DNA of 36,955 nucleotides from a virus (taxonomy: Duplodnaviria; Heunggongvirae; Uroviricota; Caudoviricetes). Below, in pieces: positions 1,985 to 36,955 of the stretch. The stretch lies in IMG/VR virus record IMGVR_UViG_2681813166_000002, positions 1-36,955 of that record; one strand, 5' to 3'. The position numbers and the translations under genes are program-made. Position 1 is the first letter of the stretch. Every line of letters starts with the position of its first letter. The notes below the pieces were generated by a model. That model made no database searches, was not told where the DNA came from, and was given only the letters and a program-made list of their open reading frames with translations.

Positions 1985-2060
1985 ATAATAGCTATTGCTA
2001 TTGGCTATATCAATACGTATTGTTATTGCTTGATGCGATTGGTTATTAAATCATTGATAG
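1985..2060 (-). promoter_or_regulatory. Candidate pL promoter and OL operators
   Basis: Minus strand reads TTGATA, 17-bp spacer, TATTAT (plus coordinates 2008-2013 and 1985-1990); motifs ATAGCTATTGCTATTGGCTAT and CGTATTGTTATTGCTTG recur in the OR region. Confidence 0.45.
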
Positions 2061-2154
2061 CAAAAAGAATTTATTTTGTGGTTTGCATCGCGTAGCGATA
2101 GCTGAAGTGAGATTGTGGTTGTTTTTTAGACGTTGAGTGTGTTGGGGAAGGGGG

Positions 2155-2186
2155 GAAGAAAACCCGGCGCGGTGGCCGGGTTATGG
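2155..2186 (-). terminator. Intrinsic terminator after the rex-position cassette
   Basis: Minus strand CCCGGC-caccgc-GCCGGG followed by TTTTCTT, immediately after the stop of the 130-aa ORF. Confidence 0.5.
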
Positions 2187-2573
2187 TTTTTTCATGTATA
2201 AATTTACGAGCAAAGTTATGACTGGCATTGCAACGGATAAGAGAAGAATTCCGAGCATCCAAGCCTTTAAATTACCTGTTTTTACTTCGACAAAATCCTT
2301 ACTTGCTTTATGAGATAACTTTTCGTCAATATCTACAAGTTTTTGAAGTATCGTAGAAACATCAGTTTTTATAGAAGAGGTAATTTTTGTCAGCTCTCTC
2401 ACATCCGCGCGAGTTTCCGCTAAGTTTATCTTGATGTTTTCAACGTCGGCTTCAAGTTTTGCAACTCTGACCTCGAGCATGCCATTCCCCCCACCATCAC
2501 TACCACCGTTTTTATGGTTATTTCTATCATCCCCCTCAGGGAAAAGAGGAGCAATATTATCAAAAGGATTCAT
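2181..2573 (-). CDS. Hypothetical membrane-anchored coiled-coil protein (Gly-rich N-terminus, C-terminal TM helix)
   Basis: 130-aa ORF in an AT-rich segment; heptad-like LEVRVAKLEADVENIKINLAETRADVREL; hydrophobic tail WMLGILLLSVAMPVITLLVNLYM. Confidence 0.6.
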   Translation of the reverse strand: MNPFDNIAPLFPEGDDRNNHKNGGSDGGGNGMLEVRVAKLEADVENIKINLAETRADVRELTKITSSIKTDVSTILQKLVDIDEKLSHKASKDFVEVKTGNLKAWMLGILLLSVAMPVITLLVNLYMKKP

Positions 2574-2593
2574 TTATTCTGGCCCGGATGTCA

Positions 2594-2992
2594 TTATTGG
2601 TCAACTTCGTTATTCTTTAGCCAGTAGAAAACAAGCCATGCCAAATAACTTGTAACGAATCCGCAATGTTTGCATATCACTCTAAACTCATAATCCATTA
2701 AGTTTTCTTTTGTCATATTCCATTGCTCATTACTATGTGGAGCATCAACCTTGTAAAGCCTTAAAACAGTATATTTTTCAATATTATTAAGATCTGTTTT
2801 CCCTTCCTTGCTGTTGAATTTATCCCAATGCCAGTCTTGCACTGCTATAAGTTCAGCCTTACCGCAAGATAAGCAGTTATGATTTGCCCCAACATGCTTT
2901 AAATATGCAGAAAATTGAGCGGTTGTAATATTTTTCACTTTATTATGAAAATCAGATACTTCATCACTTACAGATTTGTCATCATTACTCAT
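2594..2992 (-). CDS. Hypothetical zinc-ribbon protein with hydrophobic C-terminus
   Basis: 132-aa ORF in an AT-rich segment; two CxxC pairs (CLSCGK, CKHCGF); C-terminal YLAWLVFYWL. Confidence 0.6.
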   Translation of the reverse strand: MSNDDKSVSDEVSDFHNKVKNITTAQFSAYLKHVGANHNCLSCGKAELIAVQDWHWDKFNSKEGKTDLNNIEKYTVLRLYKVDAPHSNEQWNMTKENLMDYEFRVICKHCGFVTSYLAWLVFYWLKNNEVDQ

Positions 2993-3067
2993 TTTTGGTG
3001 CCTTATATCAAGTGATGCGTGGAGTTAATCAGGGGGCAGGTATTCATGAATATAAATAGCAAGATTT

Positions 3068-3760
3068 TTATCCATGCTTCCTGTACGTCTGCGGCATGCT
3101 CCCGATGACTTTCCCGAAGATGAACACTCGGTTCATCTCGTCTTTCTCGATCGGGTCCCACGGTGAGTAGCTCTTGTTATCAGAGATAACCAGCAGCTTA
3201 TCCTTCATCATTTGCAGACGTTTTACATGAGCGGTTTCGTCGTAGAGGAACGCATAAATCCCATCGCCGTCGAACGATTTGACGCTGATATCGACGAACA
3301 GCAGGTCACCTGGTTCGATCGTTCCTGACATGCTGTCGCCACGCACGTTAATAATGCGGATGTTTTCTGCTTTGCGGCCATCAAACATGTGACGCGCATC
3401 ATCATGGGAGTACTCAACCGATCGCAAAACTTCAACGAACTCACGGTTAATGACGCCTGGCCCTGCACTTACTTCCATATCAAGAACGTCAATCTTGAAG
3501 TATTTGGAAGAGCAGGTCGCCGGTTTTCCTGGCTGAACGCCATTATCCCTCATAGGGCCTATGCCTGAGGAAAGCCATTCAGTGCGAACCCCAAGTGCAT
3601 TAGCGATTTCGACAATTCTTGTAGATCCGCGTGCATTGCCGCTTGTCAGTCTCCAGATTGTGGGTTGAGCTACACCAGACGCCTTTGCAAGAGCGCCTTG
3701 AGACATTCCAGATTGTTCCATCGCTAGGTTTAAGCGATCAGCAAGAGTTTCTTTTTTCAT
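3068..3760 (-). CDS. cI: CI-type prophage repressor (HTH plus S24 LexA-like peptidase domain)
   Basis: HTH-like N-terminus (QGALAKASGVAQPTIWRL) and C-terminal S24-like segments (GDSMSGTIEPGDLLFVD, VKRL); start set at ATG 3760 (MKKETLADR...); the ORF track extends to a TTG at 3796. Confidence 0.88.
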   Translation of the reverse strand: MKKETLADRLNLAMEQSGMSQGALAKASGVAQPTIWRLTSGNARGSTRIVEIANALGVRTEWLSSGIGPMRDNGVQPGKPATCSSKYFKIDVLDMEVSAGPGVINREFVEVLRSVEYSHDDARHMFDGRKAENIRIINVRGDSMSGTIEPGDLLFVDISVKSFDGDGIYAFLYDETAHVKRLQMMKDKLLVISDNKSYSPWDPIEKDEMNRVFIFGKVIGSMPQTYRKHG

Positions 3761-3870
3761 AAGTTTTAATTTATACGCTTGCGTATCGATGGTCAAAACA
3801 CGTTTTGCTATTGCTATGCTTAATACGCATTGCTATTATTTGTTCATTGCAATACCAATAGGAATTGATA
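3761..3870. promoter_or_regulatory. OR region with divergent pRM (leftward) and pR (rightward) and repeated operator motifs
   Basis: pR: TTGCTA (3811-3816), 17-bp spacer, TATTAT (3834-3839). pRM on minus strand: TTGACC (3791-3796) and TATAAA (3770-3775). Repeated TTGCTATTGCTAT and CATTGCTATTAT motifs; ATTGCAAT palindrome. Confidence 0.55.
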
Positions 3871-4098
3871 ATGACAAATCAAACCATTCAACTCGCAATC
3901 AGTATTACAGGTAGTCAAAAACGACTGGCAGATCTATGCGGTGTAGCCCAACCCACTGTTTGGCGTTGGCTACACGGTGGCGGAATTGATGCCCGCTATG
4001 TAATGAAAATTGTCTCAGCCACTGGTGGAAAGATTAAACCAGCAGATATTCGTCCCGACCTCGCACCATTGTTTAACGCGAGTAATTCTGCCGCCTAA
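3871..4098 (+). CDS. cro: Cro-like HTH regulator
   Basis: 75-aa ORF divergent from cI; HTH-like QKRLADLCGVAQPTVWRW; AGGA RBS 7 nt upstream of ATG 3871. Confidence 0.75.
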   Translation: MTNQTIQLAISITGSQKRLADLCGVAQPTVWRWLHGGGIDARYVMKIVSATGGKIKPADIRPDLAPLFNASNSAA

Positions 4099-4122
4099 AC
4101 TGCGGCGTTAACTGATAAGGCA

Positions 4123-4668
4123 ATGACTATGCAACCACTTACATACCAACAGACTAGCGGATTTAGCCCGACTGCGGTGATAAATCGTTCTCAAACAAAA
4201 CAAGCTCCAGGCCACGAAAAAATCCGTGATGCCGTCCGCGCCTGGTCGGCTGCAGATAATCAGGATGTTGTTGCCGCACTCATTGTGAATGAGTATCGGG
4301 AGCAGGGCGGCGGCACCATCGATTTCCCTGATGATGTCAGCCGTGCACGCCAGAAGCTGTTCCGCTTCCTCGATAACAAATTCGATTCTGAAAAATACCG
4401 AAATAACGTGCGTGAACTGACCCCGGCAATTCTGGCGGTACTACCGCTGGAATATCGTGGTTACTTGGTTGAGCAGGATAGCTTCATGGCTAGGTTGGCT
4501 GAAATGGAAAAGGAACTCAGTGAGGCAAAACAGGCTGTCATTCTCAACGCACCACGCCACCAGAAACTGAAGGAGATGAGTGAAGGCATTGTGTCGATGT
4601 TTCGTGTGGACCCGGATTTGGCTGGTCCACTGATGGCGATGGTCACCACCATGCTGGGGGCAATATGA
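4123..4668 (+). CDS. Hypothetical protein in the cII position (181 aa), possibly a CII/YdaT-like regulator
   Basis: ORF between cro and O; not recognisable as lambda CII; function inferred from position only. Confidence 0.55.
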   Translation: MTMQPLTYQQTSGFSPTAVINRSQTKQAPGHEKIRDAVRAWSAADNQDVVAALIVNEYREQGGGTIDFPDDVSRARQKLFRFLDNKFDSEKYRNNVRELTPAILAVLPLEYRGYLVEQDSFMARLAEMEKELSEAKQAVILNAPRHQKLKEMSEGIVSMFRVDPDLAGPLMAMVTTMLGAI

Positions 4669-4754
4669 CAGGTTCAGAAATGGCGAAAGCCGGTCTGCGC
4701 GAACAGAACCGACTTTCAGGTGCAAATCGTAACACACTCATTGCGGGAGGAATT

Positions 4755-6382: not shown

Positions 6383-6666
6383 CGGGCAAAGAGGCAATTA
6401 TTCATTACCTGGGGACTCATAAGAACTTCTGTGCGCAGGACGTTGCCGCGGTAACAGGCGCAACCGTAACCAGTATAAATCAGGCTGCGGCTAAAATGGC
6501 GCGGGCAGGAATCCTGGTCGTTGATGGTAAGGTCTGGCGAACGGTGTATTACCGGTTCGCTACCAGAGAAGAACGGGAAGGAAAGGTGAGCACGAATCTG
6601 ATTTTTAAGGAGTGTCGTCAAAGTGCCGCGATGAAGCGGGTGTTGGCTTTATATGGAAGAGAGTAG
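6379..6666 (+). CDS. ren: Ren
   Basis: 95-aa ORF MTGKEAIIHYLGTHKNFCAQDVAAVTGATVTSINQAAAKMARAG... recognised as lambda Ren. Confidence 0.9.
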   Translation: MTGKEAIIHYLGTHKNFCAQDVAAVTGATVTSINQAAAKMARAGILVVDGKVWRTVYYRFATREEREGKVSTNLIFKECRQSAAMKRVLALYGRE

Positions 6667-6730
6667 GTATGAGCAATTATTGTTACTAATTTTAGTTTTA
6701 CGACATTCGTGATAACTAAATAATTGATGT

Positions 6731-6985
6731 GTGGAACTGAATTATAAAGGGGATGATGTTTTGGGAAATAAAGAAAATATCGATTGTAAGCACACAAGAA
6801 GCTCATGCTATAAAAACAAGCAGATGAAAGATGTTATTTATATTACATTGCCTAAACTCACTGAAGAAGAAGTAGAGATTTTTAAGGGACCAATGCATAA
6901 AGCATTGCTTGCAGGGGTAAATGTTACAAAAAAGGCAGTTTCTGATGCCCTGCTAAACAAAGGGATAAAAGTTGAATTTAAATAG
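6731..6985 (+). CDS. Hypothetical small protein in AT-rich insertion; start uncertain (GTG 6731 or ATG 6824)
   Basis: 84-aa ORF on the track; weak translation signals; convergent with the 472-aa gene. Confidence 0.3.
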   Translation: MELNYKGDDVLGNKENIDCKHTRSSCYKNKQMKDVIYITLPKLTEEEVEIFKGPMHKALLAGVNVTKKAVSDALLNKGIKVEFK

Positions 6986-6996
6986 AGTAATTCAGT

Positions 6997-7028
6997 GGCA
7001 ACAATAGCACTCATTTGTGAGTGCTGTT
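6997..7028. terminator. Hairpin between convergent genes; possible bidirectional terminator
   Basis: AGCACTCA-tttg-TGAGTGCT perfect 8-bp stem with flanking extension; no clear U-tract on either strand. Confidence 0.35.
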
Positions 7029-7036
7029 GAAATTTA

Positions 7037-8455
7037 TTAGAAAATAATGTTTGCTATATCCGAGATAGCATTTAAAGAACCTCTGTGGTCACTTCCTGTT
7101 TTAGGTAAAATATAGGAATATCGAGGGTCTTCATTATATGTTAACTTCCAGTGTTTTCCATCGCTTGACGCACTGAAACCTAAGTCCTTTAAATTTCTTT
7201 GTGTTGCGCTATCCATGCTTCTGTAACCTGTTAAAGTCCTTTTAAGTAATTGGCGGCGACTCTCGGTTTCTTTATTGTATTCATTATTGGCAATTAGGGA
7301 TGATAAGATATGGTAGCTTCTACCAAATTCATTTTTATTTTTTATGGCAGTTTTTAGTGCGTCAATAATTATATTTTTGATTTCTCCATCAAAAAAGTCA
7401 GTCTCTTCACCAGCATTAAGCACAATGCTTCCTTGGGCTGAAGCTTGTGATTGAAGAGTGCGTACTCTGTGCTCTAAAGAGGAGATCTTATGCTTAAGAT
7501 CTTCTATTTGGTCATCTTTCGCAACATTATCGGCTTCGTAAAGCGCCATCAGTTCGCGTGTGTATTCTCCTCTTTCTTTGAGTGAGTTAATAGAGTCTTT
7601 CGTTTTTCTGGTTTGTATCTCACTCCATCCACTATCTGAGACAGGAGCCATTGTAGTCGTAGCTCTTACAACATCATCAAATAACTCATCTTCAAATTCT
7701 TTTGCGGTTTTCTCACCACGGCGATAAAAACTGATATTTTGACCCCGTGGCCAATAGATACCAACAGCACCAGCATAGGCATTTTTAGCATTTGTCTCAT
7801 TTTTTAGCTTAATAGAAAATAGTCTATTGCTAGGCTCAATTAATACATGTGCTAATCCGCATACCTTTCTTGCAAGGCGTTCTGGGATGATATTGTGAGC
7901 ATGTTCATTAAAAAAATACTTGGAGCTAACGTATATTATTGGTAGTCTGTTGTCAGTTTCACCATTTATAACTTTAGCTGCTATATTTAAATGTTCATCA
8001 GTATCATCTAAGGAATGAGGTTCGACTGACACCTTGAAAATATCATCAAGACCACCAGAAAATTTATCAATCAATCTCATAACAACTAATGGTTTCTTAG
8101 GTTGCGGGGCTAGATAAGCTGCATCTTGGCTTACAACGCTAGATTCCACCTGAATCCACATGGTATCAGTTTTGAGATTTTTATTAATTGAAATATCTGT
8201 TACCCATTTGTGTGGCTCAGATATTTTCGAATACCTAAAACAGCCTAAACTAGTATCTTTGTTTTTATAAGTTATTATATCAATTCTTTCATTTTTAGAC
8301 TCTATGAAGTACTCCTCGCTTTTATAATCACATACTAATTGTGCTGGAATAAAAGTTGTATGTGGTGAGTCGTTTACCCAAGAAAAACATTCATTAAAGA
8401 TCTCAGCTAGAGATGTGGAGTTTGAAACATAAAAACCAGTTGAGAAATATTTCAT
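7037..8455 (-). CDS. Hypothetical 472-aa orphan protein, candidate accessory or defence gene
   Basis: Long intact ORF in markedly AT-rich DNA, opposite strand to flanking phage genes; AAGGAAA RBS 7 nt upstream of ATG; no motif I recognise. Confidence 0.75.
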   Translation of the reverse strand: MKYFSTGFYVSNSTSLAEIFNECFSWVNDSPHTTFIPAQLVCDYKSEEYFIESKNERIDIITYKNKDTSLGCFRYSKISEPHKWVTDISINKNLKTDTMWIQVESSVVSQDAAYLAPQPKKPLVVMRLIDKFSGGLDDIFKVSVEPHSLDDTDEHLNIAAKVINGETDNRLPIIYVSSKYFFNEHAHNIIPERLARKVCGLAHVLIEPSNRLFSIKLKNETNAKNAYAGAVGIYWPRGQNISFYRRGEKTAKEFEDELFDDVVRATTTMAPVSDSGWSEIQTRKTKDSINSLKERGEYTRELMALYEADNVAKDDQIEDLKHKISSLEHRVRTLQSQASAQGSIVLNAGEETDFFDGEIKNIIIDALKTAIKNKNEFGRSYHILSSLIANNEYNKETESRRQLLKRTLTGYRSMDSATQRNLKDLGFSASSDGKHWKLTYNEDPRYSYILPKTGSDHRGSLNAISDIANIIF

Positions 8456-8472
8456 GAAATTTCCTTATTAAA

Positions 8473-8490
8473 AATGAGATTAATCTCATT
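8473..8490. promoter_or_regulatory. Perfect 18-bp palindrome in the 5' region of the 472-aa gene; candidate operator
   Basis: AATGAGATTAATCTCATT is its own reverse complement and lies between a promoter-like region and the RBS. Confidence 0.3.
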
Positions 8491-8729
8491 GGCTATGATA
8501 ATTGTTACCCTCCTTTGGATCTAGTGTTCATTTGACATAAGAACCTATTGATTCATCATAATCAACTCGCCATAATCATGTCATCGGAGCCTGAACAACT
8601 CCGGTGACTTCTGCGCTAAACGGGGACGTTTATGCGCACATACAATCCAAACTCTCTTCTCCCTTCACAGATGCAGAGATGCACCTGCGATTTTTTGCAT
8701 CCAGCGTTTGACCTCTGCGGAGGTGAAGC

Positions 8730-9185
8730 GTGAACCTCCCACAAGACGGCATCAAATTGCATCGTGGTAACTTCACTGCTATCGGTCAGCAGATCCAGCC
8801 TTATCTGGAGGACGGCAAATGCTTTCGCATGGTGCTTAAACCGTGGCGCGAAAGACGCAGTCTTTCCCAGAATGCACTCAGCCACATGTGGTACAGCGAA
8901 ATCAGTGAGTACCTCATCAGCAGGGGGAAATCGTTCGCTACTGCAGCATGGGTAAAAGATGCTCTCAAACACACATACCTCGGTTATGAAACCAAGGACC
9001 TGGTTGATGTCGTAACCGGCGAAATCACTACGATCCAGTCGTTACGCCATACCTCCGATCTTGATACCGGAGAGATGTATGTCTTCCTGTGTAAGGTTGA
9101 AGCCTGGGCGATGAATATTGGCTGCCACCTGACTATTCCGCAGAGCTGCGAGTTCCAGCTGCTGCGCGACAAGCAGGAGGCGTAA
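8730..9185 (+). CDS. ninB: NinB/Orf-family recombination protein
   Basis: 151-aa ORF with [21 protein letters not shown] resembling the NinB RSLDQN region; position after ren; GTG start with GGAGG RBS. Confidence 0.75.
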
Positions 9186-23695: not shown

Positions 23696-25520
23696 ATTTG
23701 AGCTTAAGGCGTTGATCACCGGTGTCGACAGACTTTCTCCCGCGCTGTCGAAAATGCAAAAGAAAATCCGGGGATTTAAACGCCAGGCGGAAGAAGCATC
23801 ACAGGGTGGGCTGGCGCTTGGTGGCGGACTGGCAGCGGGTCTGACGCTTTCCCTGAAATCTTATGCCGATCAGGAAAACGCCGCCACCGGGCTGAAAGTC
23901 GCCATGATGGATGCGAACGGCGAGGTCGGAAAGAGCTTTCAGGACATCAATAAACTGGCTATTGGCCTGGGTAACCAGCTACCCGGTACAACGGCTGATT
24001 TCCAGAACATGATGCAGATGCTGGTGCGTCAGGGGATCCCGGCAGAAAATATTCTTGGCGGTGTGGGTAAAGCGACAGCTTATCTTGCGGTACAACTGAA
24101 AAAAACACCGGAAGCGGCTGCTGAGTTTGCTGCAAAGATGCAGGATGCTACCGGAACGGCGTCAGAAGACATGATGGGGCTGTTCGACACTATCCAGAAG
24201 GCGTTTTATCTGGGCGTTGACGATACCAACATGTTGTCCTTCTTCACTAAAACCAGTTCTGTTCTGAAGATGGTGAACAAGGACGGTCTTCAGGCTGCAC
24301 AGAGCCTTGCCCCCATCAGCGTCATGATGGATCAGATGGGGATGAACGGGGAGTCGGCAGGTAATGCCCTGCGAAAAGTTATCCAGTCCGGATTAAGCGT
24401 TAAGAAAATCAGGGACGTCAATAAAGTCATGGCCCGCCAGAAACTCGGAGTGCAGCTCGATTTTACTGACGGCAAAGGGAGTTTTGGCGGTCTTGATAAC
24501 ATGTTTAAGCAACTGGCAAAGCTGCGAAAACTGACCGACGTTAAGCGAACAGGTGTACTTAAGGCAATATTTGGTGATGATGCCGAAACCCTTCAGGTGG
24601 TCAATGCTCTGATCGATAAAGGAAAGGATGGTTACGATCAGATCCAGCAGAAGATGAATAAACAGGCCAGCCTGAATAAACGTGTTCAGGCACAGCTTGG
24701 TACGCTGTCCAACCTGTGGGAGGCAATGATGGGGACCGCAACTAACGGTCTTGCAGCTATTGGCGGCGCATTTTCTGGTGACGCTAAAAATATCACGCAA
24801 TGGCTGGGGGAGTTGGGGGAAAAATTCACGAAGTTTGCGGATGAAAATCCCCGGGTTATTCGCGGCGTCGTCGGGCTTGCTGCCGGTCTTGCGATTCTGA
24901 AACTGGGATTGATGGGCGTGGGCAGTGCCATCAGTATTGTCAGCAGGATCATGTCGATGACGCCGATTGGCATGATTGCGACGGCGATTGCTCTGGCTGC
25001 GGGATTAATTATCACTAACTGGGATGTAGTTGGACCTTATTTTAAGAAACTCTGGGAAACCATTGGTCCTTATTTTGAGGCTGGCTGGGAACTCCTTAAG
25101 AAAGTTTTTGCCTGGTCGCCGCTGGGGATGGTGATCAATAACTGGGGACCGGTTGTTAAGTGGTTTCAGGATATGTGGGATAAGCTGAAGCCGATTATTG
25201 AATGGTTTACCGACAGTTCCGGTGACACGGTCGATACCATTAACTCGGCGCAGTGGGGCGCGGGTGCTTATGATGCTTATGGGACGGGAATACCGGCACG
25301 GGGATACACTCCTTATCCGGCGGTGGATCCGGCTCAGGCAAACAACGCCTCCGATGCCACAGGCTCGAATCCCTTCATGATTAATAAAGCTACCGCGCCA
25401 AAAGTTGATGGTGAGATCAAGGTATCATTTATAAATATGCCACCAGGTATGCGGGTTACGGAAACACGCTCCAGTGGCATTGATATAAATCACGATGTTG
25501 GCTATACCCGATTTTGGTAG
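23688..25520 (+). CDS. Tail tape measure protein
   Basis: 610-aa ORF, Ala/Gly-rich helical with hydrophobic central segments. Confidence 0.85.
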   Translation: MAEFELKALITGVDRLSPALSKMQKKIRGFKRQAEEASQGGLALGGGLAAGLTLSLKSYADQENAATGLKVAMMDANGEVGKSFQDINKLAIGLGNQLPGTTADFQNMMQMLVRQGIPAENILGGVGKATAYLAVQLKKTPEAAAEFAAKMQDATGTASEDMMGLFDTIQKAFYLGVDDTNMLSFFTKTSSVLKMVNKDGLQAAQSLAPISVMMDQMGMNGESAGNALRKVIQSGLSVKKIRDVNKVMARQKLGVQLDFTDGKGSFGGLDNMFKQLAKLRKLTDVKRTGVLKAIFGDDAETLQVVNALIDKGKDGYDQIQQKMNKQASLNKRVQAQLGTLSNLWEAMMGTATNGLAAIGGAFSGDAKNITQWLGELGEKFTKFADENPRVIRGVVGLAAGLAILKLGLMGVGSAISIVSRIMSMTPIGMIATAIALAAGLIITNWDVVGPYFKKLWETIGPYFEAGWELLKKVFAWSPLGMVINNWGPVVKWFQDMWDKLKPIIEWFTDSSGDTVDTINSAQWGAGAYDAYGTGIPARGYTPYPAVDPAQANNASDATGSNPFMINKATAPKVDGEIKVSFINMPPGMRVTETRSSGIDINHDVGYTRFW

Positions 25521-25611
25521 CCAGAATTCCCCTCACATGTATTGCTGGTTGTAAGTCATAAATAGAGTGATAGAATTAATGCACATTTAGAAAAATGTTA
25601 ATAGGCGAAAA

Positions 25612-26142
25612 ATGAAAGGCTATATCACAGCAAGTGTAATTCTTGGAGTAGCGGCTATTTTTTCATCTCTCATAATCTCTGGCAACATCTCCTTTAAAGA
25701 TGAACATATTATTCAGTTATCTGGAGGAGCTATAAAACTTGGTGATGTTTATAAAGAAAATAAATTGATAAGTGCAAAGATTATTTTTCCAGATAATCAG
25801 GGTGAACAGATTCTTGTTGTCGACGGCAATCCTGAAAACTTTAAGGAGGATTTTCAGGAGAAATTAAATAAAGTAATAAAAACTTTAAATGCGTCAAAGA
25901 AAAAAGATGAAGAGAAAGTTAGCCTGGATAATTTAAGTGTTATTGAAGAGTCTAAACTAGAGCTCGTTTCTGCGGTGCGTTACTCTGCTCAGTATGTTCC
26001 TATGTTTACTCTGACGCTGGACAAAAAAGAAATTACCATGCCTAAAAATACGGTAATATTTCCATTTGCCAGCGATGAAACAGCTAAGTATTTAAATGAA
26101 CAACAGCAAAAGTATAAAGATTCGTTGTTTCTGACTCGCTAA
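25612..26142 (+). CDS. Hypothetical membrane-anchored moron protein (176 aa)
   Basis: AT-rich ORF with N-terminal TM/signal anchor ASVILGVAAIFSSLIISG, own RBS and own terminator, inserted between tail genes. Confidence 0.65.
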   Translation: MKGYITASVILGVAAIFSSLIISGNISFKDEHIIQLSGGAIKLGDVYKENKLISAKIIFPDNQGEQILVVDGNPENFKEDFQEKLNKVIKTLNASKKKDEEKVSLDNLSVIEESKLELVSAVRYSAQYVPMFTLTLDKKEITMPKNTVIFPFASDETAKYLNEQQQKYKDSLFLTR

Positions 26143-33424: not shown

Positions 33425-33515
33425 ATGCTTATTGGCTACGTACGCGTATCAACAAATGACCAGAACACCGCTCTGCAACGTAATTCGTTGAACTGTGCAG
33501 AATGTGAGTTGATTT
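33425..33515 (+). pseudogene. Truncated Gin/Hin/Pin-family serine DNA invertase (first ~30 codons only)
   Basis: MLIGYVRVSTNDQNTALQRNSLNCAECELI matches the invertase N-terminus including the catalytic serine region, then diverges into AT-rich sequence with an early stop. Confidence 0.8.
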
Positions 33516-33699
33516 TGAAGATAAAATCAGTGGCACAAAGTTCAATAAAAATATACCTGACACATTATACGAAGAAGATTTTATGGTTTTTTCTGTTGAT
33601 TTTTTAACATGGCTGCATGGATACAGATATGACGAAGGTAATGTAGAGTAGTAAGAACATAAATAGGCTGACAAAAGTTCAGCCTACAGTCTTTTCATC

Positions 33700-34584
33700 T
33701 TATCTTACAGCTGGTGTTTGAGGTGGCTTCGTTTTCGTTTTTTTCACGCCCTTGTTTTTTACTATTTCCAGTGCCCTTTTCTGAAGGTCTACTCCTGATG
33801 GATAGAGCACGTTGAGAATGTGCTCAGTCAGTCGGTACGCATCAAACAGATCACTTTGAGTTAAACCTGATGCTGCGTGACTCCCTTCATTACCTAACCA
33901 CTTAACAGCAAATAAAAGTCCATCTAACTTTCCAAATGTTTTTTTTCTATGTGCAGCTATGGTAATTCGTTCATGAAGAGACATGAGGCACCGCTCGCGC
34001 TTGGACTTACCCTTCCGCTTAATTAATTTGTATTTTGGTATATTGTATTCAGATAAAAGATTCTCTATTGCCATTCTAACCTTGTTTGCTGCTGAGCTTG
34101 GCGAAAGTAGTGTCAGTGAAAATGCTTCTTGCAAATTCTCATATACTTCAGATGGACATGTTGTGGGGATATCTATGTACTGTAGCGGAGGGATAAATAC
34201 TTTGGGGATGTAATAGCTAAAGTACTCCTGTATCTGTTCATCTCGATCATTTACAGTAATATCCATCTCAACATAACCAGTGCCTGAGCAGACGACAACT
34301 TCCTCGCATTCATGATTTTCGCATACCAGAACCGCAGTAAAAACCTCTTTAATCAGTTCTGTATCGGAGCCGAGAATCTCAATAAGATTATGTGATTCAC
34401 TAGTTACCTTTGCATAAAATTTTTCTTTATTTAATTTCAAACTGCTTCTTCCGCAACTTGGGCACGGGTATGTCACGTAGTCATTTACTTTGAAAGGTTT
34501 ACCAATTGAAAACTTATCCATTTTTCTCTCGTTAATTTCTCTATGAATGGTTGCTACTGAGTTTACCAACACTGTGTTTTGCAT
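33700..34584 (-). CDS. Hypothetical 294-aa protein: N-terminal zinc ribbon plus C-terminal helical domain with an R-x5-H motif
   Basis: AT-rich ORF; CPSCGR...CENHECEE cysteine cluster; C-terminal ERITIAAHRKK and KWLGNEGSHAAS. Confidence 0.7.
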   Translation of the reverse strand: MQNTVLVNSVATIHREINERKMDKFSIGKPFKVNDYVTYPCPSCGRSSLKLNKEKFYAKVTSESHNLIEILGSDTELIKEVFTAVLVCENHECEEVVVCSGTGYVEMDITVNDRDEQIQEYFSYYIPKVFIPPLQYIDIPTTCPSEVYENLQEAFSLTLLSPSSAANKVRMAIENLLSEYNIPKYKLIKRKGKSKRERCLMSLHERITIAAHRKKTFGKLDGLLFAVKWLGNEGSHAASGLTQSDLFDAYRLTEHILNVLYPSGVDLQKRALEIVKNKGVKKTKTKPPQTPAVR

Positions 34585-34807
34585 GCAATTTGCATGGAGT
34601 AGAATAAAAAAATCGGAAGTTGTCCGCTATCTCACAAATTTCCGCAAGCAATAACATCGCTAGCTTTAATACTTTAGCTCTCTCGATTTCTTGTTAATAG
34701 GAGTATGGGATTAATAATCCATACTCCTCGTTTTAAGGCAGCTAATAGACGCCTTTTGATGGGGTTAATAATATCATAAAAGAATTTAAAAATAACTTCA
34801 TTGTCTA

Positions 34808-35248
34808 TTAGTAACTAATGGTTATCGTAAACATAAATGTAGTTAGTTGACAAAAACCTACGACTGATAACATTATTTTTATCCAGAAAAAAAATAAGGC
34901 GGGGTAATTTATACAATTTGGTGGTTCTTTTAAATTATGTGTTTTTTTATCAAGTCCATTTTCCTCAAGATATTTTTCTCTTCTACGACCAAGCATTCCC
35001 CAAATAATAGTGGTTGCAGCATATTGCAGAAAATCCATTATTAAAGACATAACCAAGAACACTAATGACCAATATAGTGTATTGGGAAATAATAGAATTG
35101 TCTCAGACGAAGATCCTACTGAACTATTACTTATACTTCCCTTGAATAACCATATCAATGCAATCCCACCTAGACATGATTGCCTGTTAATATTTGATAG
35201 TGAACCGCTCGCATCATAGTATGCTTGCTGTATTTTATCTAAAAGCAT
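34808..35248 (-). CDS. Hypothetical integral membrane protein (146 aa)
   Basis: Several hydrophobic helices; start overlaps the stop of the upstream small gene. Confidence 0.6.
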   Translation of the reverse strand: MLLDKIQQAYYDASGSLSNINRQSCLGGIALIWLFKGSISNSSVGSSSETILLFPNTLYWSLVFLVMSLIMDFLQYAATTIIWGMLGRRREKYLEENGLDKKTHNLKEPPNCINYPALFFFWIKIMLSVVGFCQLTTFMFTITISY

Positions 35249-35535
35249 TACAGTACCTTCTTAATATTTGCACGTTTAGGCCCTGTACTGGTAGTCATTT
35301 TAGGCACATTTTCGGGGATGAGAATATTTTCGCTTGAAATTATTGCCCAGTTGCCTTTTTTTATTTGTCTGGTATTTAAATATGCTCGCCCATTTTTTAT
35401 AGTAATAAACCTTGAGTTTATAGAAACTCTTCTCGTCCTGTCAGGATTATCTTTTTTGGCTAATGTAATGCTGACTCTGGTAATCTTTGGATTTGATATA
35501 TGCATATGTACACGTAAGCCACGACTTTTTTTCAT
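35248..35535 (-). CDS. Hypothetical small basic protein (95 aa), first gene of a two-gene operon
   Basis: GAGGGG RBS 6 nt upstream of ATG (MKKSRGLRVHMHISNPK...); the track ORF extends further upstream without an RBS. Confidence 0.5.
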   Translation of the reverse strand: MKKSRGLRVHMHISNPKITRVSITLAKKDNPDRTRRVSINSRFITIKNGRAYLNTRQIKKGNWAIISSENILIPENVPKMTTSTGPKRANIKKVL

Positions 35536-36208
35536 TATCCCCTCACTGATACTAGCTTTAACACTGTGATACAATAACTTATATTTATGAATAAAATCAA
35601 TTGATAAATTGTAGCATTTCGGTGGCATGGAAGTTACTGTCACTACAAGCAGGTAACAACACACTCTCCTTGTTTATAACAGTAACGCACTTCAATCATG
35701 TCAAATATATGGCGGTCGAGAAATAAAGTGGCCTATAGCTATTCACTCGGGAACTGCGGCTCCTTTGCGTATCCTTTTTTGTCTCTTCACCTTCTGGTCG
35801 GTGTCTTGCTGAGATTTATAACTTCCTGTTTTTGTTGGTGTTGTCCTTACACCCTCCAATCATGATTGGCTGGCGGTAGTTGAACCCGCAGACACGTCGT
35901 ATGCAAGGACTTGCTGCGGCTGGATGGTGGACTTTCGATAGTGCGAGTATTGAATGATTTCCATCTATTATAGATTTTACCGTATTTCGGCATGAATGAA
36001 ATTGAATATCCTCCCACCGACCCTCCATGACTTTACACCACTGTCTCTGGGGCTGCTATGTGCCAAAAGCTGACATCTTCATTTTCGATGAATTTGTCAG
36101 CTACATATTATGACGCTTTCATATTTTGATGCTTTTCCCTAAATAATACTAACCCAATTCTCATCTATTTCGCTATCAATCTTAATCGTATTTAATAACT
36201 TGCAGTCA

Positions 36209-36955
36209 CTATCTATATAGCCTTTTTGCTAATGGTTCTATGGATGATGAATAGCAAAACTCTCTATTCATATTGTCTATCAATTCAAAAACTTGATCTT
36301 CAACCTCATAGTAATCATTTCTAGGCAATCGAGGATGGATTATTCCAAAATTTCGAAGCAAATTTGTGATGTTATTTTGATGTCTTACGTAAGAGAAAGA
36401 ACCTGATTTGGCTAGTGAACATGCAGTATTTGAGTCACTTATAGCACTGTTTAATTTTACAATCAGATTGCAGTAGTCTTGAGATATGGATGTAGAGCCA
36501 GAACGAGACTTATTAAAAATGATGTTATACCATTTGAATATATCAAATGAAGATGCGGATAGACGATCTCTTTTATTTATTTCGTATGATAAGTACTCTT
36601 GAAATATCTTAAAGTGTGATATATGGTTGCCAAGAGCTGACACGCTGACACTATTAGTATACCCAAGCAACGCAACAACTATTCCACCTATGCTAGCGAC
36701 TAACCCCAACAATATGAAAGTTGCTTGCAATATTAATATTGATTGTGAGTAACCTTTAGTAAAATTTGAAATGCAGGTATTATTGAAACAAAAACTCCGA
36801 TTAAAAAAACCTTCTTGCATTCCAGTTAAAATAAATGAAGTTACAAAAAGCATTATGCCTAGTGTAACAATAGTAATCAAACATAGAAGCAAGATTCTAA
36901 GAGAGTGTGAGTCTATTTTTTTTAGAAGGATATAACTTTTAAAAAAGTTTTTCAT
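36209..36955 (-). CDS. Hypothetical protein with two N-terminal TM helices and a soluble C-terminal domain (248 aa; start at window edge)
   Basis: AT-rich ORF; hydrophobic segments ILLLCLITIVTLGIMLFVTSFIL and ILILQATFILLGLVASIGGIVVALLGY; the ATG is the last three bases of the window, so the true start could lie beyond. Confidence 0.55.
   Translation of the reverse strand: MKNFFKSYILLKKIDSHSLRILLLCLITIVTLGIMLFVTSFILTGMQEGFFNRSFCFNNTCISNFTKGYSQSILILQATFILLGLVASIGGIVVALLGYTNSVSVSALGNHISHFKIFQEYLSYEINKRDRLSASSFDIFKWYNIIFNKSRSGSTSISQDYCNLIVKLNSAISDSNTACSLAKSGSFSYVRHQNNITNLLRNFGIIHPRLPRNDYYEVEDQVFELIDNMNREFCYSSSIEPLAKRLYR

Follow-up and report, generated by a model that had tools for sequence, protein, structure and literature searches.

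The window analysed here, a stretch of 36,955 nucleotides, is an E. coli lambdoid prophage whose genes run in the order S24 repressor, cro-like gene, YdaT-domain gene, O/P, ren, orf33/ybcN/ninE/rusA/Q, lysis genes and structural genes. Between the end of ren (6666) and the start of the conserved nin region (~8548) lies a low-GC insert (33–38% G+C), which is carried by only 24 of 5426 complete E. coli genomes. The insert holds a small rightward open reading frame (ORF; 6731–6985, plus strand; 84 aa as annotated) and a gene for a protein of 472 aa (7037–8455, minus strand), which sits as a cargo gene between ren and orf33/ybcN, is convergent to the small ORF and lies antisense to the rightward early phage transcription. 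A strong, terminator-like hairpin with a 12-bp stem (7002–7029) separates the two convergent genes, directly behind the stop codon of the longer one. In E. coli UID2309220033 (L004), an extra segment (2760–4690 of that locus), encoding a protein with a P22AR C-terminal domain (antirepressor-like) and a hypothetical protein, is found between the right flank of the cassette and orf33/ybcN, so that the ren–nin junction appears to be a recurrent insertion point. Other low-GC islands of the prophage (32–40% G+C; 2000–3000, 25500–26000 and 33500–36955), the ORFs of which are mostly on the minus strand, are likely to be additional cargo or moron genes.

The 472-aa protein belongs to a family of 75 clusters of ~470 aa, distributed over Enterobacterales, Pseudomonas, many other bacteria and a few archaeal bins, and no Pfam or NCBIfam family was found for it. 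Its predicted structural model (pLDDT 83) comprises a START/Bet v 1-like N-terminal domain, a thioredoxin-like domain, the fold of which was confirmed, a long coiled coil and a small C-terminal alpha-beta-beta-beta-alpha domain. The thioredoxin-like region matches the PADLOC candidate HEC-07 (E = 1e-9), with an alignment confined to residues 83–334. As described in the accessible part of the preprint (Payne et al., bioRxiv 2024.01.29.577857), HEC-07 combines an N-terminal and a thioredoxin-like domain with a RelE-type RNase that has a conserved His, and this part gives no defence phenotype for it. Compared to HEC-07, the N-terminal domain of the 472-aa protein looks START/Bet v 1-like rather than AdoMetDC-like, and its small C-terminal domain was not identified as RelE. 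This mini-domain (residues 411–472) matches only phrog_2053 (E = 9e-8), which has no assigned function there. It has four invariant residues (H435, D443, R445 and Y446) and five nearly invariant ones (K452, S455, D456, R458 and G459), and its modelled layout resembles that of small RNase toxins (HicA- or RelE-like); in a BLASTP comparison, it did not align with a HicA sequence.

A defence role for the 472-aa gene is plausible, and we consider it a candidate anti-phage gene. Its relatives in P4-like satellites occupy the integrase-proximal cargo end, and those in P2-like phages the gpA-side/portal and Ogr-side positions; Rousset and colleagues reportedly described these sites as defence hotspots in 2022. 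The cassette may include the small ORF as an optional second component. Its conserved part is the C-terminal ~53 aa, and it accompanies the 472-aa gene in several contexts, with tblastn matches in L049/L050, L177, L082, L179 and L009 (the C-terminal part is conserved beside the gene in Edwardsiella, L177, L082, L179 and L009). In L010, L080, L065 and L068, the 800 nt that follow the gene contain no comparable small ORF; the L062 contig ends 536 nt after the gene. Searches with the small ORF against Pfam, PHROG and NCBIfam gave no match, and one RefSeq record labels it ‘phospholipase D-like domain-containing’.

Immediately upstream of the 472-aa gene, a perfect 18-bp palindrome, AATGAGATTAATCTCATT, occupies positions 8473–8490, with 7-nt arms (AATGAGA/TCTCATT) and a 4-nt centre (TTAA); its 14-bp core, TGAGATTAATCTCA (TGAGA-TTAA-TCTCA), spans 8475–8488. 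This confirms the first-pass annotation, which had noted an exact 18-bp palindrome within 8456–8500 that ends 17 nt (8456–8472) from the ATG at 8455. The window contains no other perfect palindrome of 16 or 18 bp, nor a further copy of this one when up to three mismatches are allowed. Among 300 dinucleotide-preserving shuffles of the window, 17% nevertheless contained at least one perfect 18-bp palindrome, so that rarity is weak evidence and, since chance palindromes are not negligible, the case for a function must rest on the comparison with homologous loci. The same figure fits an explanation without regulatory function, in which the palindrome is a chance product of AT-rich DNA or, together with a T-run, forms a weak hairpin that insulates the gene from upstream leftward transcription; the region is indeed AT-rich, and on the coding strand of the window TTTTT comes directly after the right arm.

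Promoter-like and ribosome-binding elements, all on the minus strand, flank the palindrome. A Shine–Dalgarno sequence, AAGGA (8462–8466), lies 6 nt upstream of the ATG and is conserved in relatives. On the other side of the palindrome, a −10-like hexamer TATCAT (8495–8500; five of six positions identical to TATAAT) ends 4 nt upstream of it, and is preceded, across a 17-nt spacer, by a −35-like hexamer TAGATC (8518–8523) in the conserved ACTAGAT block (8519–8525). TAGATC agrees with TTGACA at only three of six positions, which makes its −35 role a putative one. Counting from the −10-like hexamer, transcription is predicted to start at ~8487–8490, on the first bases of the palindrome. The palindrome had initially been placed between promoter and ribosome-binding site. 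It does lie upstream of the ribosome-binding site; it is not, however, clear of the promoter, because TATCAT ends so close to it that the palindrome covers the predicted start.

The spacing of these elements was compared in relatives. A −10-like hexamer (TATCAT, TATTAT or TACCAT) is present at the same 4-nt distance in L009, L064, L080 and L050, and the CTAGA block keeps a fixed 28-nt distance to the palindrome in the window, L009, L064 and L080, the sequence of the spacer having diverged. The distance from the palindrome to the Shine–Dalgarno sequence, on the other hand, varies among relatives from 3 to 7 nt. Since the distances to the promoter blocks are fixed and that to the Shine–Dalgarno sequence is variable, the palindrome is tied to the core promoter and not to the ribosome-binding site. 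From their sequence and spacing, the conserved blocks are the predicted footprint of a sigma-70-type promoter with a good −10, a weak −35 and a 17-nt spacing. A second promoter layout was found in the loci that we refer to as Pantoea-type (L105, L010 and L106), where the −10 of a conserved TTGCCT-17-(TGn)TAAATG overlaps the left arm of the palindrome.

We compared 112 distinct regions upstream of genes for relatives of the 472-aa protein. In the near-identical E. coli copies the palindrome is unchanged, and the flanking bases vary on both sides. Relatives with 68–100% protein identity share a module composed of ACTAGAT, 18 nt, TATCAT, 4 nt, AATGAGA-N4-TCTCATT and the ribosome-binding site. The palindrome-bearing loci come from E. 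coli, Siccibacter, Pantoea, Klebsiella aerogenes and Scandinavium and represent at least four contexts: the lambdoid nin region, two P2-like positions, the end of a Klebsiella prophage and a D5-primase element. The P2-like loci either follow the gpA replication gene and adjoin the portal gene (L059/L080) or follow the portal and Ogr genes (L062/L064), the Pantoea element carries a D5-type primase (L065/L105), and L068 lies at the end of a prophage of Klebsiella aerogenes. Relatives in these differing contexts share 68–76% protein identity. Their elements read AATGAGA-aaac-TCTCATT (L009, Siccibacter), AATGAGG-atag-TCTCATT (L064), AATGGGA-ataa-TCTCATT (L080), AATGAGA-atat-TCTTATA (L105), AATGAGA-atag-TCTTATT (L010/L106, Pantoea), TATAGGA-aaca-TCTTATT (L068) and AATAAGA-tttt-TCCCATA (L082, Scandinavium). 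The centre of the element is 24–27 nt from the ATG in relatives, and 23 nt in L064, the core of which has one mismatch.

Thus, across these loci the arms are maintained, the four central nucleotides vary freely and the surrounding bases outside the motifs have diverged. Retention of the arms down to 68% protein identity argues against the explanation without function raised above, as does the T-run, which is replaced by TTATC in VCSW7 and UID2309220033 and by TATAAT in L105; the stem, moreover, has only two G–C pairs and was not called by a terminator scan. A palindrome that arose by chance or serves as an insulator is therefore very unlikely in our judgement. An intrinsic terminator or attenuator was rejected on the same grounds, the AT-rich stem being passed over by the scan and the U-run not being conserved. 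Judging from its conservation in homologous loci, the palindrome is more than a chance occurrence, and the comparison identifies it as a putative conserved control element at the predicted transcription start of a mobile prophage gene.

This conservation has clear boundaries. The first-pass annotation had held that absence of the palindrome from homologous loci would speak against a function, and here the comparison gave a divided answer: the element is present in one enterobacterial sub-clade and absent from other members of the family. It is missing from the Edwardsiella relative (81% identity), the closest one outside E. coli, which has the same promoter and a different sequence in place of the palindrome. 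It is likewise absent from the relatives borne by P4 satellites (77%), from L177, L178 and L179, from all relatives below 62% identity among the 112 regions, and from the Pseudomonas-group and more distant relatives. Since the Edwardsiella relative and many members of the family do without the box, it is dispensable.

Two further observations concern the wider distribution of such motifs. A scan of viral contigs with TATYAT-N4-AATGAGA-N4-TCTCATT, aimed at the same module on other genes, returned only the E. coli prophage lineage and L191, an unrelated AT-rich viral contig with TATTAT-tcat-AATGAGA-aact-TCTCATT at 290–317 and no homologue of the 472-aa gene after it; the latter occurrence is probably due to chance or unrelated, and the scan thus gave no sign that the module serves other genes. 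Relatives of the Pseudomonas group (37–42% identity; L086, L087, L089, L115, L116 and L118) share an upstream motif of their own, TATGATGTCAAAATGATAGC, which contains a direct ATGAT repeat, lies ~30–55 nt upstream of the start and points to a separate regulatory solution in this clade.

A conserved inverted repeat on a transcript start could act as DNA or as RNA, and the first-pass annotation had offered both an operator for a dimeric regulator and an mRNA hairpin occluding the ribosome-binding site. The second proposal did not hold: the stem (8473–8490) ends 6 nt before the Shine–Dalgarno sequence and does not pair with it, the two being unpaired with each other in both minimum-energy and centroid folds, and an occluding hairpin was rejected. 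The hairpin is weak, with a predicted energy of about −5 kcal/mol, and it is the minimum-energy fold in only four of nine variants. In L082 the RNA stem has two A·C mismatches in the sense strand. Although 92% of the stem cells in the alignment are pairable, this was likewise so in 371 of 500 column shuffles, and no covariation beyond that of the column shuffles was found, the one double change being no more than shuffles give. A conserved RNA structure was consequently rejected, given this lack of covariation and the lack of an Rfam match in a search of 6600–8800.

A different RNA-level explanation deserves more weight, namely that the 5′ end of the mRNA folds into a 7-bp stem capped by a tetraloop, which shields the transcript from 5′-end-dependent decay or tunes translation. 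With TATCAT as the −10, transcription would start on the first bases of the left arm and leave the hairpin 5′-terminal in the window, L009, L064 and L080, where it is the minimum-energy fold (−4.4 to −5.5 kcal/mol). In addition to the high share of pairable cells, several single changes convert to G–U pairs in the sense strand, and L068 has one double change from G–C to A–U. Emory, Bouvet and Belasco reportedly showed in 1992 that 5′-terminal stem-loops of the ompA type stabilise mRNAs. The palindrome hairpin resembles this type in being located at the extreme 5′ end, upstream of the Shine–Dalgarno sequence and excluding it; unlike the ompA type, it is weak, is not kept in all relatives and lacks covariation. 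On this evidence we regard a stabilising or tuning hairpin as unlikely, if still the strongest of the competing explanations.

The operator proposal fared better. Besides the conserved arms, free centre and fixed promoter spacing described above, the half-site centres are 11 bp apart, an anatomy that would suit a dimeric regulator, and the core fits exactly a published box. From crystal structures and electrophoretic mobility shift assays (EMSA), the box of the RcsB homodimer was defined as TN(G/A)GAN4TC(T/C)NA (Huesa et al. 2021, PMC7913699), that is, two inverted (G/A)GA motifs with half-sites 4 bp apart (PMC7913699). TGAGATTAATCTCA fits this consensus at every specified position and is its sole match in the window. 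By itself the exact match means little, because the consensus carries little information and 1.66 matches are expected in the window by chance; furthermore, the fit was noticed after the palindrome had been compared with many regulator motifs, so that a look-elsewhere effect has to be allowed for.

More telling is the pattern of substitution among relatives. The invariant columns of the alignment (T17, G20, T26, C27 and A30) are five of the six specified consensus positions, and the sixth (column 21, A) changes in L064 only. The variable columns coincide with the N, R, Y and N positions of the consensus, the R columns holding purines and the Y columns pyrimidines throughout. In total, eight of the nine arm substitutions are allowed by the RcsB consensus, for which a binomial estimate gave P = 2e-4 to 1.5e-2, according to how independent the events are taken to be and to the transition bias. 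The single violating variant, that of L064, has AGG for AGA, a change that, at the flhDC site, reduces binding when it affects the first motif and is tolerated when it affects the second (PMC7913699). Two variants, TAAGATTTTTCCCA of L082 and that of L068 (reverse complement TAAGATGTTTCCTA), share 13 of 14 positions with the flhD site of Salmonella, TAAGATTTTTCCTA. This site is located at +4 to +18 of a down-regulated gene (PMC7913699), which is also where the present element is predicted to lie. Overall, an RcsB box occurs in 15 of the 112 upstream regions against 0.83 expected, most of these being homologous copies. Every host named for a palindrome-bearing locus belongs to the Enterobacterales, the order to which the Rcs phosphorelay is restricted (PMC7913699, PMC9942566).

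Boxes outside the conserved palindrome were also encountered. In L179 (66% identity), the upstream region of which is unrelated, an independent site, TAAGAATAATCCTA, is found at −54 and agrees at 13 of 14 positions with the RcsAB box consensus as quoted in PMC12388358. It lies at ~436–449, 54 nt upstream of the gene start at 497, and abuts a −35-like TAGACT, a position that would be activating rather than repressing. The distant relatives L120 and L176 have a consensus match 21 nt from the ATG that is unrelated to the palindrome.

Taking the conservation, the substitution pattern and the position together, we put at roughly one half the probability that the palindrome is an RcsB (or RcsAB) box over the predicted transcription start of a portable promoter, most likely a repressive one. 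Of ten known RcsB sites downstream of transcription starts, seven repress (PMC7913699). The sign of regulation is nonetheless uncertain, since in yggB and psiF sites at similar positions go along with increased expression (PMC7913699).

The same anatomy and conservation would fit an operator for another protein, such as UvrY/SirA or a further member of the NarL/FixJ family, some other host factor or a product of the cassette itself. The UvrY site TGTGAGAGATCTCTTACA has the same TGAGA-N4-TCTYA core, and the conserved flanking A and T of the palindrome (AAT...ATT) extend past the published RcsB consensus, which leaves them unexplained. Yet UvrY sites have TGT...ACA as outer bases, where the palindrome has invariant A/T, and act from far upstream, whereas the palindrome lies at the predicted start; for these two reasons the UvrY/SirA (GacA-type) box, an 18-nt inverted repeat TGTGAGA..TCTTACA, was rejected. 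Within the cassette, the model of the 472-aa protein has no recognisable DNA-binding fold, and the small convergent ORF was rejected as cognate regulator, because its co-occurrence with the palindrome is inconsistent, several palindrome-bearing loci lacking a comparable ORF after the gene. A different regulator is thus an unlikely answer, though not as unlikely as the absence of any function.

Several specific candidates were also discarded. An immunity operator of the CI/Cro type of the prophage was rejected for want of any other copy in the window with up to three mismatches. The YdaT box, TTGATT-N6-AATCAA, was rejected since the palindrome has ATGAGA half-sites and N4 spacing; YdaT, the CII-analogue of Rac/CP-933P-type prophages, is a prophage factor that has been reported to bind within an RcsAB box. 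Fur, ArgR, CRP/FNR, LexA, P22 c2, Lrp, IHF and Fis did not fit in half-site or spacing, as judged by a comparison with their generally cited consensus sites.

Returning to RcsB as the preferred candidate, the palindrome would be a DNA operator in a portable promoter–operator–ribosome-binding-site module that travels with the 472-aa cargo gene. The operator would cover about +1 to +18 after the −10 TATCAT, and would overlap the −10 in the Pantoea-type layout. Its predicted binder is a dimer of RcsB, the NarL/FixJ-family regulator of the Rcs envelope-stress phosphorelay, or possibly RcsA–RcsB. Bound at the start, the dimer may occlude or roadblock RNA polymerase, such that in a lysogen the 472-aa gene would be transcribed from its own moderate promoter and turned down when Rcs is active. 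Default expression with repression under Rcs activity would be the more likely consequence of an RcsB site at this place, rather than the repressed state with induction by a signal such as infection that the first-pass annotation had suggested.

The closest parallel is the leader box of flhDC, a 14-bp pseudo-palindrome TNRGA-N4-TCYNA just downstream of the start of P1flhDC in Salmonella and E. coli, through which expression is repressed when Rcs is active (PMC7913699). Unlike that box, the putative site described here is a perfect 18-bp palindrome, with TGAGA in both half-sites, and it belongs to a horizontally mobile prophage cargo gene instead of a core host operon. RcsB also represses csgD, where its footprint, from −31 to +53, extends over the core promoter and the transcription start (PMC12388358). 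The known csgD system, however, involves several degenerate motifs in an extended region and co-repression by H-NS, in contrast to the single perfect site found here. In Serratia, Rcs inversely controls surface defence and CRISPR-Cas, according to the passages of PMC10810281 that cite Smith et al. 2021. The Serratia case concerns CRISPR-Cas operons, whereas the present one is a single-gene prophage cargo with a predicted, sequence-based link; in those same passages on the Serratia work, no RcsB box on single-gene prophage cargo is described (PMC10810281).

On a broader reading, which we advance as a tentative one and consider doubtful as a whole, the insert would be a single-gene, probably RNase-type abortive-infection cassette with a portable promoter and a perfect RcsB operator, spreading among lambdoid and P2-like prophages of Enterobacterales, with Rcs directly gating a mobile, intracellular anti-phage effector. 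For many prophage cargo and defence genes, the usual assumption is constitutive expression or silencing by H-NS. If confirmed, an operator of a host two-component system within a mobile cassette would mean that such genes come already coupled to a conserved stress signal of the host, and would extend the Serratia Rcs switch of ‘surface versus intracellular immunity’ to defence genes acquired by horizontal transfer. Envelope damage is a consequence of phage adsorption and of lysis, and the module would offer a simple, testable link from such damage to the expression of an intracellular defence candidate. In this sense the palindrome suggests a new target for an already known kind of operator, the interest of which lies in the wiring of a mobile, defence-type gene to envelope stress, and it provides a defined 14–18-bp target for mutagenesis together with a candidate regulator for an unannotated 472-aa family.

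The neighbouring phage backbone carries operator-like sequences of its own. A perfect YdaT box (TTGATT-CATCAT-AATCAA) is located at 8548–8565, at the edge of the backbone and 58 bp from the palindrome; this box is the operator of the CII-analogue YdaT (PMC11879457). The prophage itself encodes a YdaT-domain protein (4123–4668, plus strand), and a one-mismatch YdaT box is present in the cI–cro intergenic region (3865–3882). The box at 8548–8565 overlaps the putative −35 annotated for the orf33/ybcN promoter of phage 82, which carries a perfect YdaT box of its own, TTGATTttgggaAATCAA. This arrangement suggests YdaT control at the entry of the nin region. Upstream of orf33, an inverted repeat, TCATCGGAG-N9-CTCCGGTGA, spans 8580–8608, and record X92588 of phage 82 labels the corresponding segment a ‘possible regulator-binding site’.
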